Origin: a virus
Lineage: Duplodnaviria > Heunggongvirae > Uroviricota > Caudoviricetes
Reading direction: 5' to 3' (one strand)
Length of the DNA: 6,021 nucleotides
IMG/VR virus record: IMGVR_UViG_2778261504_000009
Coordinates: 1 to 6,021 of that record
In this document: positions 1 through 6,021 of the stretch, piece by piece
Layout of the letters: each line of letters starts with the position of its first letter
How positions within the stretch are numbered: the first letter of the stretch is position 1
Notes under the pieces: model-generated
Told to the model about the DNA's origin: nothing
Databases searched by the model: none
Seen by the model: only the letters and a program-made list of their open reading frames with translations
Made by a program: the position numbers and the translations under genes

Positions 1-926
1 TCGCAGTACTGGCCGATGACATACAGCGCCCATTTGTCCACATCCGCCGCACCAAGACGTTTCCCCATGCCGTAGCGTGGATGGGTCAGCATATCCCACA
101 GACACCAGGCCATGTTATTGCTGTATGCTGGCTTAAACGTTCCGTCCCAGATACCGCTGTATTGCCGAGTCTGCGGGTTATAGTTCGACGGCACCTGCAG
201 AATACGCCCGCGCAGATGATAATTACGGCTCACCTGCTGGCTGCCGAACTGCTCCGAATCCACCTGTACGCCGACCAGTGCCGTGTTCGGGTAGCACTGT
301 TTCACATCGATGATTTCGGTGTATGACGACCAGAGCGTTTTGTTCTGCAGCTGGTCTGTGGTGCTGTCCGGCGTCATCCTGCGCATCCGGATATTGAACG
401 GGCGCGGCGGCAGGTCACCCACCACCACCGAGGCCAGATACTGCGACGTGGTTTTGCCCTTAATGGTGATGTCTTTTTCCGTCACCCAGCCACCGTTACG
501 CTGTATCTGAACCAGCAGGCGGACTTCCGATGGATTCCTGTCCCCCTTTGAAGTGGTTTCCACCAGTGCCTGCACACCGAAGGTAAAGCGCAGACGGTCG
601 ATGTTTGCCGACGTAATGGTCCGGGTAATCGGCGTGTCGTACTTCACCTCCGTACCCAGCACCGTCTCGGAGTCGGAGGATTCAAATCCCTCCGGCGGTG
701 TCTGCTCCTGCTCACCAGCCCGGAACACCACCGTGACACCGGAGATATTGGTATTCCCCTCACTGTCCAGCACTGGCGTACTGTTCAGCAGCACACTTTT
801 TAATCCCTCCACCGGACCTTCAATCGGCCCTTCACTGATGGCGTCTATCACGCTCAGCAGCGGGGATGATTTCAGGTTGTCCTTCGCTTCGCGCGGGGTA
901 TGCCCCTTACTGCTGCCTTTACCCAT
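1..926 (-). CDS. J: Tail tip / host-specificity protein J, N-terminal ~308 codons; gene runs off the window at position 1
   Basis: Not in the ORF track because no stop lies in the window. Reverse complement from ATG (complement of 924..926) reads MGKGSSKGHTPREAKDNLKSSPLLSVIDAISEGPIEGPVEGLKSVLLNST..., and near the window edge ...RQYSGIWDGTFKPAYSNNMAWCLWDMLTHPRYGMGKRLGAADVDKWALYVIGQYC, which matches lambda gpJ as I remember it. Sits 60 nt downstream of the I stop, as in lambda. Confidence 0.9.
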   Translation of the reverse strand, partial: MGKGSSKGHTPREAKDNLKSSPLLSVIDAISEGPIEGPVEGLKSVLLNSTPVLDSEGNTNISGVTVVFRAGEQEQTPPEGFESSDSETVLGTEVKYDTPITRTITSANIDRLRFTFGVQALVETTSKGDRNPSEVRLLVQIQRNGGWVTEKDITIKGKTTSQYLASVVVGDLPPRPFNIRMRRMTPDSTTDQLQNKTLWSSYTEIIDVKQCYPNTALVGVQVDSEQFGSQQVSRNYHLRGRILQVPSNYNPQTRQYSGIWDGTFKPAYSNNMAWCLWDMLTHPRYGMGKRLGAADVDKWALYVIGQYC

Positions 927-986
927 TCCTCTCGCTCCAGAAACGACAAAACCGCCCGCAGGCGGTTTCACATAAAACATTTTGCA

Positions 987-1628
987 TCAGCGACCAATCA
1001 CCACAACCTGACCACCATCCCCTTCGTCTGCCGTGCTGATTTCCTGCGAAATTACCCGTGACCCCACACGCATTTCACCGTACAGAACAGGCAGAACATT
1101 GCCCTGGGCAACCATGTTATCCAGTGATGAGAAATACGTGTTCTGCTTACCGTTATCCGTGCTGGTCGTTGTTGCGGTACTCGCTTTCGGTGCCAGCATC
1201 TGTGCAACACCGCCAAGCGTCATCGCTGCACCCATTGAAAAGAGAATGTCACTGAAAGCGATACTGATCCCCGGCATCCAGATTGCCGTAGCAATCAACG
1301 CCGCACCCAGCACCGCCTGAAACACACCGCCACTTTTTGCTCCCGCAAGACGCGGCACGATGTGGATCACGGCACCATTTGCCAGCGGCTCATTAAGACG
1401 GGATGATAATTCGGTTTCGCCTGCATCACGCCCGGCAATCCGTACCTGATACCAGCCGTCGCTCAGTTTCTGACGAAACGCCGGGAGCTGTGTGGCCAGT
1501 GCGCGGATGGCTTCAGCCCCCGTTTTCACACGAAGGTCGATGCGGCGGCCAAATCGTTGTAAATCCCCGTAAAGGCAGATGCGTGCCATGCCCGGTGACG
1601 CCAGAGGGAGTGTGTGCGTCGCTGCCAT
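987..1628 (-). CDS. I: Tail assembly protein I (lambda gpI-like), 213 aa
   Basis: ORF-track translation MAATHTLPLASPGMARICLYGDLQRFGRRIDLRVKTGAEAIRALATQLPAFRQKL... ...NGKQNTYFSSLDNMVAQGNVLPVLYGEMRVGSRVISQEISTADEGDGGQVVVIGR matches lambda gpI N- and C-termini from memory. Its 5' end overlaps the 3' end of K by 103 nt out of frame, as in lambda. Confidence 0.9.
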   Translation of the reverse strand: MAATHTLPLASPGMARICLYGDLQRFGRRIDLRVKTGAEAIRALATQLPAFRQKLSDGWYQVRIAGRDAGETELSSRLNEPLANGAVIHIVPRLAGAKSGGVFQAVLGAALIATAIWMPGISIAFSDILFSMGAAMTLGGVAQMLAPKASTATTTSTDNGKQNTYFSSLDNMVAQGNVLPVLYGEMRVGSRVISQEISTADEGDGGQVVVIGR

Positions 1629-2263
1629 TTGTCGGTATACCTCTCTCGTTTGCTCAGTTGTTCAGGAATATGGTGCAGCAGCTCGCCGTCGCCGCAGTAA
1701 ATAGCGGCATGATTCGGCACCGATGAACCAAAACAGCACAGCAGCACATCGCCCGGCTGCGCCGCTGACAACGGCACCTGATACAGCCCCGTTGCCTCCA
1801 GATTATCCAGATAGAGATTCTGACCGTGACGCCACCAGTCATCCCCGCGATGAAAATCCGGCATCTCAATCCCCGCCAGATGGTAAGCATCCCGGAACAG
1901 TGTGTAACAGTCCGTCACCCCGTGCTCAAAGCGCCGCCCGGTGAGATGCGGCACACAGCGGAATTTATGAATCTCACCCCGGCAGACCAGCCACCACGGC
2001 AAATCACTCTGCACCTGCAGCCGCCGGTCAGCCTCACTCAGCCAGGGCAGGCCACCGGGGTGGCTGTGGACCAGCGCCACAATCTCACCCTGCATTTTGG
2101 CCTGCAGCCAGTCCTCCGGAGCCATCCGGAAATAATCCTCCGGCTCACCGGAGATATTCACGCAGGGAAAATATCTTTCCCCCTCCGGCGTTCTCACCAC
2201 GAAGCCGCACGACTCCGCTGGCGCACATCGCCGGGCGTGCGCCAATATATTGCTATAGAGCAT
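1526..2263 (-). CDS. K: Tail assembly protein K (lambda gpK-like) with MPN/JAMM and NlpC/P60 peptidase motifs; start placed at the ATG with a strong SD (245 aa)
   Basis: Translation carries a JAMM-type motif HSHPGGLPWLSEAD (HxHx7Sx2D) and NlpC/P60-like Cys/His contexts (GVTDCYTLF, SVPNHAAIY). The ORF-track start at 2302 is rejected because codons 2-13 lie inside a hairpin/U-tract (2276..2299). The ATG at 2261..2263 is preceded by AGGAG (complement of 2269..2273) with a 5-nt spacer. An internal ATG at 2123..2125 would give the 199-aa length I recall for the classical lambda K annotation, so the start is uncertain. Confidence 0.85.
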   Translation of the reverse strand: MLYSNILAHARRCAPAESCGFVVRTPEGERYFPCVNISGEPEDYFRMAPEDWLQAKMQGEIVALVHSHPGGLPWLSEADRRLQVQSDLPWWLVCRGEIHKFRCVPHLTGRRFEHGVTDCYTLFRDAYHLAGIEMPDFHRGDDWWRHGQNLYLDNLEATGLYQVPLSAAQPGDVLLCCFGSSVPNHAAIYCGDGELLHHIPEQLSKRERYTDKWQRRTHSLWRHRAWHASAFTGIYNDLAAASTFV

Positions 2264-2275
2264 GAGAACTCCTGA

Positions 2276-2299
2276 TAAAAAACCCAGCCGAAGCTGGGT
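2276..2299 (-). terminator. Putative intrinsic terminator after ant: 6-7 bp GC-rich stem, UUCG loop, U6 tract, directly 5' of the K ribosome-binding site
   Basis: Minus-strand RNA reads CCCAGC-UUCG-GCUGGG-UUUUUU-AUC-AGGAG-UUCUC-AUG. Plus strand shows cccagc (2283..2288), loop cgaa, gctggg (2293..2298), with an A6 run at 2277..2282. Confidence 0.5.
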
Positions 2300-2317
2300 C
2301 ATTTCGTTGGCAATCTG

Positions 2318-3238
2318 TTAGTAGTGATGCAGTGAAGGAGGTAATTCTTTGTTCTTAAGTCTTAGCCATGCAGAAAGATTCGTTGGTCCGTCTGGCTCAT
2401 TAATATCAATATCTCGCGTGTGATTGATTAAAACGTCTCTCGCCATTCCAATAACATACGAGAACTCATGACCGTAGTCGTAGCATCTGCAGGAATAGTT
2501 CGATTGAATTTGCTTTAGCGCCGGATACAGTTCGCGGAATAATGCCTGTGAGCGGTTAGCATAATCCCATAACCATACAAGGCTGTTTGCTTCTTTTGCA
2601 GAAAGCTCGTTGGTTTTCTTCTCTTGTTTGCCAATGAACTCACCTTCAAGCGGAACGCGAGCAGCAAGTGACAGTGCTTCGGTAAACTGCTCCTCACTAA
2701 TTTCTTTGTACGAACATCCAAAATGGGATTTCAGTGACGACCACATGGTGATCATCGCCTTCGCCTGTTTTTCTTTTGGCAGAGACTGACCGCGACTCAT
2801 GACAAGTTGTTTAATGGCTTCCTGCTGTTCAGTGGTGATTTTCCCCAGCAATGCCTTTTTAGCTTTGCGCGGGTTAATCACATGGCCTTTAGTCCAGTAC
2901 TCGTAGAGCACATCGTCACACTCTTCCTGATACTGGATTACCTTCTCGCGGATTTCAGGGCGGACTTTGTTAGGACTGATGGTTTGGAGCCAACCATTCA
3001 GTTTACGCAAAGCAAGGCAAATCATGGTCTGCATACCGCCAACTGAAGGTATTGCGATTTCCACAATACCTTTAGCAAATCTTTGTTTTAACTTTGTAAA
3101 CTGTGAAGCCCAATCCATACCCATTCCCTCAACGATAGGTTTCATTGGGGTGTACGGTTCGCCGTTGTGATTGACGACATAAAGCTCTGCGCCGTGGAAT
3201 GGCACGTTGATAGTAGATACCGCTGTTGCTATACTCAT
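2318..3238 (-). CDS. ant: Ant-like phage antirepressor (P22 immI Ant family), 306 aa from the ATG start
   Basis: Translation MSIATAVSTINVPFHGAELYVVNHNGEPYTPMKPIVEGMGMDWASQFTKLKQ... has the look of phage antirepressor proteins and sits immediately downstream of an Arc-like gene, the P22 arc-ant order. The ORF-track start at 3292 is a GTG inside a hairpin; ATG at 3236..3238 is preceded by AGGAA (complement of 3247..3251). Family assignment is from memory and context, not from a search. Confidence 0.75.
   Translation of the reverse strand: MSIATAVSTINVPFHGAELYVVNHNGEPYTPMKPIVEGMGMDWASQFTKLKQRFAKGIVEIAIPSVGGMQTMICLALRKLNGWLQTISPNKVRPEIREKVIQYQEECDDVLYEYWTKGHVINPRKAKKALLGKITTEQQEAIKQLVMSRGQSLPKEKQAKAMITMWSSLKSHFGCSYKEISEEQFTEALSLAARVPLEGEFIGKQEKKTNELSAKEANSLVWLWDYANRSQALFRELYPALKQIQSNYSCRCYDYGHEFSYVIGMARDVLINHTRDIDINEPDGPTNLSAWLRLKNKELPPSLHHY
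3207..3235 (+). promoter_or_regulatory. Near-consensus sigma70-type promoter firing antisense across the ant start (Psar-like)
   Basis: TTGATA (3207..3212), 17-bp spacer, TATACT (3230..3235), with TG at 3227..3228 giving an extended -10 (TGcTATACT). Predicted start near 3242. Confidence 0.4.
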
Positions 3239-3241
3239 TTC

Positions 3242-3312
3242 GTTAGTTCCTTGGAAGTTACTGACATAGAAGCCCGATTTGTGTTCGCGCACTGTCGGGC
3301 TTCGCTATTTTT
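3242..3312 (+). ncRNA. Candidate sar-like small antisense RNA (~70 nt) complementary to the ant SD and the arc-ant intercistronic region
   Basis: Bounded by the promoter at 3207..3235 and a hairpin with 9-bp stem gaagcccga (3269..3277) / tcgggcttc (3295..3303) followed by gcUAUUUUUAU (3304..3314). Coordinates are approximate. Size and position mirror the P22 sar RNA as I recall it. Confidence 0.35.
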
Positions 3313-3314
3313 AT
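3269..3314 (+). terminator. Hairpin plus U-rich tract in the arc-ant intercistronic region; candidate terminator for the antisense RNA
   Basis: Perfect 9-bp inverted repeat 3269..3277 / 3295..3303 with a 17-nt loop that can form an inner GUG/CAC stem, followed after 2 nt by tattttta. The U tract is not directly adjacent to the stem, hence modest confidence. Confidence 0.35.
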
Positions 3315-3478
3315 GTCCTAGCATTCTTCTCTCCAATCAGTCCGTACACTTTTCTCAATTGATAAATAAGTTCCGTGTTGAACTGTCGACACTCTTTTTC
3401 TCCATTTCTTTCAATCGCCTTCCTTACATCCTCTGGGAAACGAACCTTGCGTTGATACATGTCTTTTGCTTTTTCCAT
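3311..3478 (-). CDS. arc: Arc-like ribbon-helix-helix repressor, 55 aa (not in the ORF track)
   Basis: Hand translation of the reverse complement gives MEKAKDMYQRKVRFPEDVRKAIERNGEKECRQFNTELIYQLRKVYGLIGEKNART, stop TAA at complement of 3311..3313. Resembles P22 Arc (...FNLRWPREVLDLVRKVAEENGRSVNSEIYQRVMESF...) in the R-x-P-x-E-V strand and N-x-E-I/L-Y-Q helix. Preceded by AAGGAG (complement of 3484..3489) 5 nt before the ATG. Confidence 0.75.
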   Translation of the reverse strand: MEKAKDMYQRKVRFPEDVRKAIERNGEKECRQFNTELIYQLRKVYGLIGEKNART

Positions 3479-3495
3479 CTCCACTCCTTAAATAG

Positions 3496-3558
3496 CCTCA
3501 CTGTGGGGCAATCAAAATTGTCACACCGTGCGTCATTGAAGTCAACCCCACCGTGGGG
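3496..3558. promoter_or_regulatory. Operator-like sites: three CACYGTG cores at 25-bp phasing, two embedded in 13-bp palindromes
   Basis: Perfect palindrome ccccac-c-gtgggg (3546..3558) and near-palindrome cctcac-t-gtgggg (3496..3508) share the core CCNCACYGTGGGGCA. A third caccgtg lies at 3524..3530. The cores start at 3499, 3524 and 3549. Confidence 0.45.
3517..3545 (-). promoter_or_regulatory. Candidate Pant-like promoter for arc-ant
   Basis: On the minus strand: TTGACT (complement of 3540..3545), 17-bp spacer, GACAAT (complement of 3517..3522) preceded by TGT (extended -10 form). Predicted start near 3510, about 30 nt upstream of the arc ATG. Confidence 0.4.
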
Positions 3559-3564
3559 CATAAT
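3536..3564 (+). promoter_or_regulatory. Candidate Pmnt-like promoter for the Mnt-like gene, back-to-back with the arc-ant promoter
   Basis: TTGAAG (3536..3541), 17-bp spacer, CATAAT (3559..3564). Its -35 overlaps the -35 of the divergent minus-strand promoter by 2 bp. Confidence 0.4.
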
Positions 3565-3601
3565 TTACTTATTGTGAATTTTTCCTGTTTGGACTAATGG
3601 T

Positions 3602-3976
3602 ATGAGTAGAGAAGACCCTCAACTTCGGATTAGGCTTCCTGTTGAATTAAAAAAAATAATTGAAGCGTCATCAAAACAAAATAATCGTTCTATGAATGCT
3701 GAGATTGTCACTCTGCTTGAGTTGGCGATTCGTGTTTGTCGTGATTTTGGGCCGGAGGATGGTCCTATCGTTCAGCAGTTTAAAGAACAACTAGATGCGA
3801 TAAACAGAAAATATGATAAAAGCGAGCATGAAAAACTTATACCTCAACTTTTAGAAATCATAGAAAAACAGAAAAAACAAGTAGATAAACTTATTAGCAT
3901 GGTTGAAAGATCAATTCCTCTTTCAGAGGAATATAAGCAGAAATATCTTGGTGATGACAACAAAAAACCCACCTGA
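3602..3976 (+). CDS. mnt: Mnt-like ribbon-helix-helix repressor with an extended charged C-terminal region, 124 aa
   Basis: N-terminus MSREDPQLRIRLPVELKKIIEASSKQNNRSMNAEIVTLLELAI resembles P22 Mnt (ARDDPHFNFRMPMEVREKL...NGRSMNSELLQIVQDAL) as recalled. The C-terminal ~80 residues are K/E/Q-rich and probably helical. Divergent from arc-ant as in P22 immI. The SD is weak. Confidence 0.75.
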   Translation: MSREDPQLRIRLPVELKKIIEASSKQNNRSMNAEIVTLLELAIRVCRDFGPEDGPIVQQFKEQLDAINRKYDKSEHEKLIPQLLEIIEKQKKQVDKLISMVERSIPLSEEYKQKYLGDDNKKPT

Positions 3977-3983
3977 TGGTGGG
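3962..3983 (-). terminator. Putative intrinsic terminator 3' of L, overlapping the stop codon of the convergent Mnt-like gene
   Basis: Minus-strand RNA reads CCCACC-AUCA-GGUGGG-UUUUUUGUUGU. Plus strand shows cccacc (3968..3973), loop tgat, ggtggg (3978..3983), preceded by an A6 run (3962..3967). The mnt TGA stop (3974..3976) lies in the loop. Confidence 0.45.
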
Positions 3984-3992
3984 CATAATCCA

Positions 3993-4691
3993 TTACTGCG
4001 AAAGTTTGTTAATGGAAAGGAAGCCGCCAAAGTTGCCGACGTTATTGCGAAACTTACAGCCACTCAGGCATTTGCTGCATTTATCCTTCGTGATATCGGA
4101 CGTCGGCTGGTCATATTCATCCGCGACAGCCGGACCGTTATAACCGCACTCATCACCGCGATAGGTCCAGGTGCAGGTGTTGGCCAGCATGATACGCCCC
4201 GGAAAAACAGCGCCATCCGTTTCCGTCGGCGTGGCCAGTACAAAGGAGGCACTCACCGCGCTCAGTTCACTGCACTGCTCGATGCGCCAGCGGCTGATCA
4301 CCTCCTGCTCCGGATCGGCGTCACTGTTTCCGTTGACGAAGTTCACCGCATCCAGAAAACGGGCGTAAACCTTACGCCTGACCACCGTTCCGCCGACCAG
4401 ACTCTGCATATCTTCCACCATACCGGTGACCATGCCGTACAGGTTAGAGACTGCCAGCGTGGGCCGCGTACTGGTGCCTTTGCCATTCAGTTCAAAACCG
4501 CTCCCCTGAATGGGATACGCCTGATACTGCCTCCCCTGCCAGGTGATCGGCTCACCTTTTTCGTTCTGCTCATTACAGAAAAAATAACGTTCTCCACCGA
4601 CCTCTGTCAGGTCGATTTCCCAGAGCACCACGCTGGCCGACTGCTCCGCACGGGTGCATTCATTCAGTGTTTCCTGCCGGATATCCTGCAT
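3993..4691 (-). CDS. L: Tail tip protein L (lambda gpL-like), 232 aa
   Basis: Translation MQDIRQETLNECTRAEQSASVVLWEIDLTEVGGERYFFCNEQNEKGEP...CSKCLSGCKFRNNVGNFGGFLSINKLSQ matches lambda gpL from memory. Start overlaps the M stop by 1 nt (TGATG). Confidence 0.9.
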   Translation of the reverse strand: MQDIRQETLNECTRAEQSASVVLWEIDLTEVGGERYFFCNEQNEKGEPITWQGRQYQAYPIQGSGFELNGKGTSTRPTLAVSNLYGMVTGMVEDMQSLVGGTVVRRKVYARFLDAVNFVNGNSDADPEQEVISRWRIEQCSELSAVSASFVLATPTETDGAVFPGRIMLANTCTWTYRGDECGYNGPAVADEYDQPTSDITKDKCSKCLSGCKFRNNVGNFGGFLSINKLSQ

Positions 4692-5020
4692 CAGTTCACC
4701 ACCTGTTCAAACTCTGCGCTGAACTCAACACGCAGCATACTGACCCGCGACGACCATTTTGCGCAGGTCACCTTTATCTGCCGCCACTCATAAGGCGGCG
4801 TCCACAGAAAGGCTTTCCAGCCCCCGTGCTCTTCCAGAAACGACTCCAGTACCGTGGCCTCCTCACGGGGGACAGAAAGCGTCACGCTGTACGTTTTCAG
4901 GTTGGCATTCAGCCCGGCAGGCGCTCGCTGGGAATAGCCATCACCAAAGCGCACCTTTCTTACAGAAGGGGCCGAAGCCACATCCATACCGGGTTTCACT
5001 TTCCAGCGGAAGGTTTTCAT
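4691..5020 (-). CDS. M: Tail tip protein M (lambda gpM-like), 109 aa
   Basis: Translation MKTFRWKVKPGMDVASAPSVRKVRFGDGYSQRAPAGLNANLKTYSVTLSVPREEATVLESFLEEHGGWKAFLWTPPYEWRQIKVTCAKWSSRVSMLRVEFSAEFEQVVN matches lambda gpM from memory. ATGA overlap with the H stop. Confidence 0.9.
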   Translation of the reverse strand: MKTFRWKVKPGMDVASAPSVRKVRFGDGYSQRAPAGLNANLKTYSVTLSVPREEATVLESFLEEHGGWKAFLWTPPYEWRQIKVTCAKWSSRVSMLRVEFSAEFEQVVN

Positions 5021-6021
5021 CGTCCACCTCCGGAGAACAGGCCACCATCACGCATCTGTGTCTGAATTTCATCACGGGCACCCTTGCGGGCCATGTCATA
5101 CACTGCCTTCATCATCTGTGGACCTGGCAGACCATTCGTACCGTCGTTCTGAATCACCACGTGATTGTTCTGATTAAAATTAATGCCTTCAGCCCGCCGC
5201 ATCTGCGCCGGACTTCCGGCACCGCCCACATAACCACCTTCCGCATAGCCCCGCATCAGGCGGTACAGGTTGCCGACACCAATCCGGCTGGTTGCCTCCT
5301 TCGTGAAGACAAATTCACCACGGTGAACAATCCCCGCTGGCTCATATTTGCCGCCGGTTCCCGTAAATCCCCCGGTCGCGAAATGGAAGTTCGCCGCCGC
5401 AGCCTGAATGGCCGTCCCCGTGGAGGCAGACGCACCACCACCGAAAGCACCGCCAATGGCGCTGCCGATACTCCCGACTATCCCCACCATCGCCTGCTTC
5501 AGAAAAATCTCTGTCAGCATGGAGAGCACAGAACGGGTGAAACCACGCCAGTTCTGTTCGCTGCCGGTCAGCATCGCTGCCATATTCTGTGCAATACCGT
5601 CAAAGGTCTGCGTGGCCGCGCTTTTAACCTGCGAAAAACTGTCCGTCGCACTTTCCGCCCACTCGCCCCAGCCGGACTTCAGCCCGGCCATCCAGCTTCC
5701 ACGAAGCTGCTCCTCCGCAGACCAGGTGTTCTTCAGTGCAGATGTGGCCTTCGCCAGCGCAGCCGGATTATCACCGTACACGTCACGAAGGCGCTGCTCT
5801 TCCGACTCCCGCTGCGCCTGACGGTCGGTGAGGCCGCGGGCTTTTGCGCTGATGGCTGCCTGCTTCGCGCTCTGCTGCTGTTCAAACCGCGCCGCCTGCT
5901 GTGCCAGCTCATTCAGCCGTTTCTGGTGTTCAACCTTGTCGCCAAGCTCAGCCAGCTGGCGTTTGTACTCCAGCGTCTCTTTCTCATGGGTCAGCAGGGA
6001 TTTTTCCTGCTCAGATAACTG
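5017..6021 (-). CDS. H: Tail tape-measure protein H, C-terminal ~334 codons; 5' part lies beyond the window
   Basis: The frame is open from the window edge: reverse complement from 6021 reads QLSEQEKSLLTHEKETLEYKRQLAELGDKVEHQKRLNELAQQAARFEQQQSAKQAAISAKARGLTDRQAQRESEEQRLRDVYGDNPAALAKAT... and ends ...RDGGLFSGGGR, matching the lambda gpH C-terminus from memory. The ORF-track M at 5781 is an internal GTG (Val), not a start. Confidence 0.9.
   Translation of the reverse strand, partial: QLSEQEKSLLTHEKETLEYKRQLAELGDKVEHQKRLNELAQQAARFEQQQSAKQAAISAKARGLTDRQAQRESEEQRLRDVYGDNPAALAKATSALKNTWSAEEQLRGSWMAGLKSGWGEWAESATDSFSQVKSAATQTFDGIAQNMAAMLTGSEQNWRGFTRSVLSMLTEIFLKQAMVGIVGSIGSAIGGAFGGGASASTGTAIQAAAANFHFATGGFTGTGGKYEPAGIVHRGEFVFTKEATSRIGVGNLYRLMRGYAEGGYVGGAGSPAQMRRAEGINFNQNNHVVIQNDGTNGLPGPQMMKAVYDMARKGARDEIQTQMRDGGLFSGGGR

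Follow-up and report, generated by a model that had tools for sequence, protein, structure and literature searches.

A probable P22 immI-type antirepressor module between tail genes L and K of a lambda-tailed Escherichia coli prophage

Why should a set of regulatory genes lie in the middle of a phage tail operon? This question is raised by a stretch of 6,021 nucleotides (nt) from a tailed phage (Caudoviricetes; IMG/VR record IMGVR_UViG_2778261504_000009, positions 1 to 6,021), referred to here in its full length as the window. In it, a cassette of 1729 nt (positions 2264–3992) with genes for an Ant-like antirepressor, an Arc-like repressor and a Mnt-like repressor separates the lambda-like tail genes L and K. 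We propose, with a probability of roughly 0.8, that this cassette is a module of the P22 immI ("second immunity") type within the operon of late tail genes in a lambda-tailed prophage, and that it works by the mechanism set out below. The binding, repression and antisense steps of that mechanism are derived from homology and from the layout of the locus.

The window is a piece of an Escherichia coli lambdoid prophage, and displays 99.9% identity to NZ_CP062871.1 (strain Res13-Lact-PEA14-20), in which the prophage occupies the region of the lambda attachment site, with ybhC on one side and ybhB/bio on the other. All tail genes of the window are carried by the minus strand, in the order H-M-L, then the cassette, then K-I-J. 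A preliminary description of this DNA had taken both blocks to be lambda-like and colinear, and this is borne out by Pfam tail families and by blastn analysis, in which positions 1–2244 and 3993–6021 align with lambda at 90.2% and 88.6% identity, respectively. The same alignment maps the breakpoints: the cassette remains unaligned, and homology picks up again exactly at position 3993, on the side of the L stop codon. The spacer between L and K is indeed short in lambda, with 5 nt between the L stop codon and the ATG of the K open reading frame (ORF), of which RefSeq annotates K from a later start. The cassette has a guanine-cytosine (GC) content of 42.6% compared to 57.4% in each flank, and is thus more AT-rich than its surroundings, as had been noticed. 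L and K are adjacent in most lambda-like H-J clusters of E. coli, and the cassette is absent there and in lambda itself; hence it is not a universal part of such clusters. Its absence from most of them, the deviant GC content and the predicted promoters and terminators of its own agree with the view of the cassette as a moron.

Ant is encoded by the largest gene of the cassette (2318–3238, minus strand, ATG at 3238), with a product of 306 amino acids (aa). The protein carries the Pfam domains P22_AR_N (E-value 1e-44; 151.7 bits, cut-off 30.7) and P22_AR_C (4e-29; 100.9 bits, cut-off 22.4), matches PHROG 245 "anti-repressor Ant" at 1e-97, and aligns with P22 Ant along the entire length at 56% identity (E-value 3e-119), rising to about 90% in the last 125 aa. 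A longer Ant of 324 aa starting from a GTG at 3292 was considered and rejected, as homology gives no support for it. A search of Ant against the PDB returned no solved relative, and NCBIfam holds no family for Ant or for the Arc-like protein.

Directly upstream of ant, as the first gene of the arc-ant operon, lies the gene of the Arc-like repressor (3311–3478, minus strand), the ATG of which at 3478 is preceded at a distance of 5 nt by an AAGGAG Shine-Dalgarno sequence. A small Arc-family protein in this position is a feature of immI, and its length of 55 aa compares with 53 aa in P22. The protein matches PHROG 228 "Arc-like repressor" (5.5e-6) and is 33% identical to P22 Arc (E-value 2e-5), the likeness being limited to a ribbon-helix-helix (RHH) part of roughly 40 aa. 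Single-sequence phmmer analysis against the PDB returned only spurious designed proteins; the match to Arc needed a profile, and the profile of the protein and its positional homologues, with P22 excluded, matches the Arc structures 1ARR and 1PAR over the full length at about 1e-7. The Mnt-like repressor is encoded on the plus strand (3602–3976); its gene diverges from arc-ant, which again is the immI arrangement, and is antisense to the late operon. It comprises 124 aa compared to 83 aa in P22 Mnt. Its residues 1–43 form an RHH domain that passes the Pfam Arc cut-off of 20.4 with 30.6 bits and is 33% identical to residues 1–43 of P22 Mnt (E-value 2e-10); the best PDB match is 1MNT (E-value 0.0015). 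The earlier assignment of all three proteins to the Mnt, Arc and Ant families is therefore retained, with the restriction that for the two repressors it extends to the RHH part only.

RHH proteins are common antitoxins, and a weak match to FitA-like_RHH was obtained; moreover, some alleles of the cassette have an Ant with a BRO-N-like N-terminus, or a ClpP-like gene in addition. These points might suggest a defence or toxin-antitoxin-like moron, composed of antitoxin-type proteins and an effector, instead of an antirepressor system. We consider this highly improbable: Ant is homologous over its full length to P22 Ant, an antirepressor characterised by experiment, Mnt and Arc themselves are the nearest relatives of the RHH proteins, and Pfam and NCBIfam searches of the cassette proteins displayed no toxin-family domain.

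The immI region of P22 reads mnt, Pmnt/Pant, Oarc/Omnt, arc, sar, ant and t-ant, upstream of the tailspike gene 9. The cassette displays the same gene order and the same location inside the late operon, and the polarity attributed to it, with mnt divergent from arc-ant, matches the annotated P22 region. It differs in its site, which is the L-K junction of a phage with lambda head and tail genes. The divergent region between the arc-like and mnt-like genes spans 123 nt and contains two predicted promoters, each with a score of 9/12 in the promoter scan. The Pant-like promoter (3517–3545, minus strand) reads TTGACT-17-(TG)n-GACAAT with an extended -10 element, and the Pmnt-like promoter (3536–3564, plus strand) reads TTGAAG-17-CATAAT; their -35 hexamers overlap back to back. 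In two podophage prophages (loci L006 and L014), reading by eye gives TTGATG-17-CATACT at the Pmnt-like position.

Two operator candidates accompany these promoters. O1 (3545–3559; aCCCCACcGTGGGGc) lies in the spacer of the Pmnt-like promoter and has the CCACGGTGG core of the P22 mnt operator (GGTCCACGGTGGACC). O2 (3495–3509; GCCTCACtGTGGGGC) follows the Pant-like -10 element at a distance of 7 nt, which is the placement of P22 Omnt relative to Pant. Both are 15-bp palindromes that have this core in common with P22 Omnt and show one mismatch each to GCCCCACNGTGGGGC, and sites with at most one mismatch occur twice in the window compared to 0.0015 expected from shuffled sequences. A weaker third core, CACGGTG (3524–3530), is found in the Pant-like spacer at the position of P22 Oarc. 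The window has its Mnt recognition strand (SREDPQLRIRLP) and its operator type in common with L006 and L014, and P22 differs in both. As a separate observation, the three CAC-N-GTG cores are centred at 3502 (O2), 3527 (the weak middle core) and 3552 (O1), with a spacing of exactly 25 bp.

The control region of P22 immI further includes the antisense RNA sar, and a comparable unit is predicted at 3207–3314 on the plus strand. Its promoter (3207–3235), TTGATA-17-(TG)-TATACT, is the best promoter match of the region (10/12, extended -10 element). The -10 hexamer TATACT overlaps ant codons 2–3, and hexamer and placement are those of the annotated Psar of P22. The predicted RNA (about 3242–3312, ~70 nt) covers the complement of the ant ribosome-binding site, and its end coincides with the arc stop codon, as in P22. 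It consists of a 5' hairpin and a terminator hairpin (3269–3303) followed by a U-run, the same two hairpins as in P22 sar, with a fold of -28.3 kcal/mol (z-score -4.9). The terminator stem is kept across 8 alleles, and three of its pairs show compensatory changes.

The cassette is bracketed by two predicted intrinsic terminators on the late strand. The first follows L (3961–3984, minus strand) and was found by the terminator scan as GCCCACC-atca-GGTGGGT with a subsequent TTTTTT (-14.1 kcal/mol, z-score -2.8); P22 immI has no counterpart of this extra terminator upstream of the island. The final codons (KKPT-stop) of the Mnt-like gene fall within the terminator after L. The second lies between ant and K (2275–2300, minus strand), reads GACCCAGC-ttcg-GCTGGGTT with a subsequent T-run (-16.4 kcal/mol, z-score -3.7), and occupies the position of the annotated P22 terminator between ant and gene 9. 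Thus, as in immI, ant is co-oriented with late transcription and separated from the next late gene by a terminator. At this junction the K start is altered as well: the ATG at 2263 and its GGAG ribosome-binding site derive from the cassette, and the first ~7 codons of lambda K are replaced (MLYSNIL versus MTQTESAIL). A longer K ORF of 258 aa starting at 2302 was rejected on homology, and also because the extension (2264–2302) contains the ant terminator.

Taken as a working immI module, the cassette would operate as follows. In the lysogen, the divergent Mnt-like RHH repressor would be expressed from a promoter of its own and would occupy the Omnt-like palindromes next to and overlapping the arc-ant promoter, so that no Ant is produced. 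When the phage infects a cell in which this Mnt allele is absent, the arc-ant promoter would become active and lead to a burst of Arc and Ant, and Ant would bind and inactivate prophage repressors of the C2/CI type. Arc would then shut the arc-ant promoter, with the sar-like RNA pairing to the ribosome-binding site of ant. The terminators after L and after ant would insulate the island, so that unmodified polymerase would neither enter from the tail operon nor exit into K-I-J, and late transcription antiterminated by Q would read through, with the tail-tip genes still expressed. Co-expression of ant with the tail-tip genes by late read-through, as suggested earlier, is plausible; it would need Q-modified polymerase, because two late-strand terminators bracket the island, and it would be opposed by the sar-like RNA and by Arc. 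The island occurs in inducible Shiga toxin (Stx) phages, for example in 2851, and is therefore compatible with tail assembly.

Several observations weigh against this reading, or at least against a strict copy of P22 immI. The predicted Pmnt-like and Pant-like promoters stand back to back, and about 60 bp lie between their start sites, whereas the two promoters of P22 overlap fully. A Pmnt in the P22 style, with its -35 element over the Pant -10 element, was looked for by eye and no acceptable -10 element was found, for which reason the back-to-back arrangement was kept. P22 has distinct Oarc and Omnt sites, but the window has two or three similar palindromes, and an Arc-type operator distinct from these was not seen in its divergent region. 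The recognition strands of the Arc-like and Mnt-like proteins are similar as well (Q-x-R/K-x-R), so that the division of labour may differ from P22; unlike those of P22, the two repressors may share operators. The Arc-like protein on its own scores 19.1 bits and stays below the Pfam Arc cut-off. Past residue 43 of the Mnt-like protein, the remaining ~80 aa display no sequence similarity to the Mnt tetramerisation domain, and this C-terminal part is to be taken as unrelated in sequence. AlphaFold2 modelling without an alignment predicts an all-helical structure after residue 14, with long helices at 55–104, at low confidence (predicted local distance difference test score 55); such helices are compatible with an oligomerisation domain and are not evidence for one.

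The sar-like unit is likewise below the level of formal recognition. An Rfam scan of the whole window gave nothing at E<=1, and a focused scan gave a sub-threshold match only: the sar model (RF00262) aligns end to end at 3242–3306 with 15.6 bits, compared to a gathering score of 43 bits. P22, run as a control, is detected by the same model (97.8 bits). By the Rfam criterion the element is a non-member; in predicted position and structure, however, it is the counterpart of P22 sar. Finally, mnt transcripts were not detected in Kapi1, a related P22-like lysogen (PMC12922286).

This last result, together with the rarity of the exact allele (2 of 5426 complete E. coli genomes), could also point to an inactive hitch-hiking remnant without current function. 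We regard such a remnant as improbable. The three ORFs are intact, and so are the predicted control elements, namely promoters, operators, sar-like hairpin and the two terminators. The same allele is found in five further IMG/VR contigs (at least 90% identity over at least 90% of its length), and the island as such persists in 461 complete genomes and in inducible phages.

The prophage around the window supplies a further element of P22 immunity. Its primary repressor has helix-turn-helix (HTH) and Peptidase_S24 domains and is 94% identical to P22 C2 (locus L011, 14179–14829; NZ_CP062871.1, 4542178–4542828). C2 is a known target of P22 Ant. As a C2-type repressor and an immI-like island occur in one prophage, a lambda-tailed phage appears to hold both halves of the bipartite immunity of P22, namely C2 and the module of Mnt, Arc, Ant and sar. 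Judged by its genes, this prophage at the lambda attachment region, lambda-tailed and with a P22-type immC and an immI-like island, is a natural lambda/P22 hybrid.

The same parts might mainly serve cross-talk between prophages. Here Ant, from an incoming or an induced phage, would act on other lambdoid prophages in the same cell, those of Stx phages included, by inactivating their repressors, and the many alleles of Mnt and operator would serve co-resident phages as a code of compatibility. Two properties of P22 Ant favour such a role: its broad range, with the repressors of P22, L, lambda and 21 as targets, and its dispensability for the cycle of P22 itself (PMC3121763). So do the variability of the island between fixed junctions, its frequency in polylysogenic enterohaemorrhagic E. 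coli (EHEC), and an allele with a CI/LexA-like regulator instead of Mnt, which would tie Ant to the SOS response (see below for all three). Set against it is that the host prophage has a self-cleaving repressor already, of the C2 type and with an S24 domain, and so needs no Ant to be induced itself. Cross-talk relies on the same mechanism as the immI reading and is not exclusive of it, and as the main role of the island we deem it possible but on balance unlikely.

How widespread is the island, and how did it arise? None of the phage records searched covers 80% of the window. A query made of the K/ant junction, however, is covered to at least 80% in 461 of the 5426 complete genomes (about 8%, ~1 in 12), and a single L-K allele accounts for 267 genomes, including O26:H11 11368 and O157:H7. 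The island is frequent in polylysogenic EHEC (O157:H7, O26:H11, O111:H8) and already annotated in reference EHEC genomes. The published phages 2851, YYZ-2008, 1717 (Stx2), Stx2a_WGPS4/6/8 and PhiR12_1 carry it as well, with an annotated antirepressor between L and K. No paper describing an antirepressor island between L and K was found in the searchable literature; the "antirepressor" of a paper on O157 prophages turned out to be Cro. The discovery is accordingly a modest one, a rare allele of a known type of module at a site that is already occupied in many database records.

The location of immI inside the P22 late region had led to the proposal that such placement is recurrent. The L-K cassettes, however, are better seen as descending from one ancestral insertion than from repeated targeting of the site, because both junctions are identical in every L-K cassette examined (the window and loci L004, L008, L012, L013, L015 and L016). 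The shared junctions include both terminators and the replaced K start; the terminator after L forms the conserved L-side junction, and the ant/K junction is conserved in all alleles. The interiors vary: the genes of the Mnt and Arc types differ, the N-terminus of Ant is of two kinds, and a ClpP-like gene is present in some. Clustering of 45 cassettes at 90% identity over 90% of length gave at least 9 groups. This suggests a single-origin insertion, the interior and specificity part of which has been swapped with immI regions of P22-like podophages.

The window allele fits this picture. Its positions 2638–3708, from the middle of ant to the DNA-binding domain of Mnt, are 80–85% identical to the immI of the Stx2 podophage TL-2011b and a related prophage. 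The TL-2011b immI and the podophage prophages L014 and L006 share with the window most of ant, the sar-like unit, arc, promoters, operators and the Mnt-like N-terminus; they differ in context, which is not between L and K, and in the Mnt-like C-terminus and the C-terminal part of ant. The complementary relation holds for the L-K islands of the above Stx and lambdoid phages and of the O157:H7 and O26:H11 11368 prophages. These share with the window both junctions, both terminators, the replaced K start and the C-terminal domain of Ant, and carry another allele of the Mnt-like/Arc-like/operator segment and of the N-terminal two thirds of ant. Only the outer parts of the window allele match the common EHEC allele, and with L008 it shares only 1–756 and the last 34 nt of the cassette. 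As judged from these alignments, the window allele is a rare recombinant of known parts, with a TL-2011b-like immI.

Other alleles differ further in gene content. In E. coli EC12 (NZ_CP070229.1; locus L004, 4331–5140), a CI/LexA-like regulator of 269 aa with HTH_3 and Peptidase_S24 domains takes the place of the Mnt-like RHH protein, and could make the expression of Ant directly SOS-inducible. An extra ClpP-like protease gene is found downstream of mnt in L016 (phage PhiR12_1; 2395–2931), L028, L039 and L007 (4540–5076), and L039 contains an additional ORF for a Cys-rich protein of 67 aa between arc and ant. The divergent regulators of the window, L004, L008 and L057, among them RHH proteins of 124 aa and 106 aa and the CI-like protein of 269 aa, are unrelated and all end in KKPT-stop. 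These last codons sit within the shared hairpin of the L-side terminator, and the boundary appears to be a boundary of recombination.

SOS-controlled antirepressors are known from Gifsy, Fels-1 and N15. They are likewise small or medium-sized proteins that inactivate a prophage repressor non-covalently and are encoded outside the primary immunity region (PMC3121763), but they are unrelated to Ant and repressed directly by host LexA. In the window, control would be exerted by phage RHH repressors and an antisense RNA, and only the EC12 allele has a CI/LexA-like regulator.

If this is generalised, the L-K island may be viewed as a terminator-insulated, hypervariable second-immunity locus of single origin in long-tailed lambdoid and Stx phages, the alleles of which form a compatibility code that sets trans-induction. 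We offer this as a speculative model, and consider it somewhat less probable than cross-talk as such. If true, the code, with at least 9 variants of Mnt, Arc and operator of which one is SOS-cleavable, would determine the co-resident prophages, Stx prophages included, that are trans-induced upon infection or induction of another phage. An island that controls cross-induction through its alleles would thus bear on the induction of Stx phages in polylysogens. The present data already indicate that the bipartite immunity of P22 exists naturally in a lambda-tailed E. coli prophage, and that the L-K site hosts a widespread antirepressor island with swapping interior alleles, EHEC and Stx phages included.

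The tail genes around the cassette lie on the minus strand. Upstream in the sense of the late operon, H extends from 5017 onward, followed by M (4691–5020) and L (3993–4691, stop codon at 3993–3995; Pfam Phage_tail_L, 1.4e-100), and Phage_min_tail is among the families matched in the flanks. Downstream are K (1526–2263; Prok-JAB and NLPC_P60), for which the Prokaryotic Genome Annotation Pipeline places the start at window position 2263, I (987–1628; Lambda_tail_I), and J (up to 926). Differences in length of ~420 nt among lambda-like clusters were considered as possible L-K inserts and turned out to reflect an insert between I and J. This insert codes for a hypothetical protein of 112 aa and is present in L009 (993–1331; NZ_CP099721.1), H74 and H86, and marks a second site of small inserts among the tail-tip genes.

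Two minor observations concern the wider context. Type III effector genes (an EspJ family ADP-ribosyltransferase and EspS) are located in the prophage past the tail-fibre genes (locus L002, 10614–12696), adjoining the bio-side attachment end. Among the database records, MW057783.1 ("Campylobacter phage CJLB-4", 48,361 bp) matches the window with identity and bit score equal to those of lambda records; it bears lambda gene names, and may be essentially lambda deposited under the name of a Campylobacter phage.

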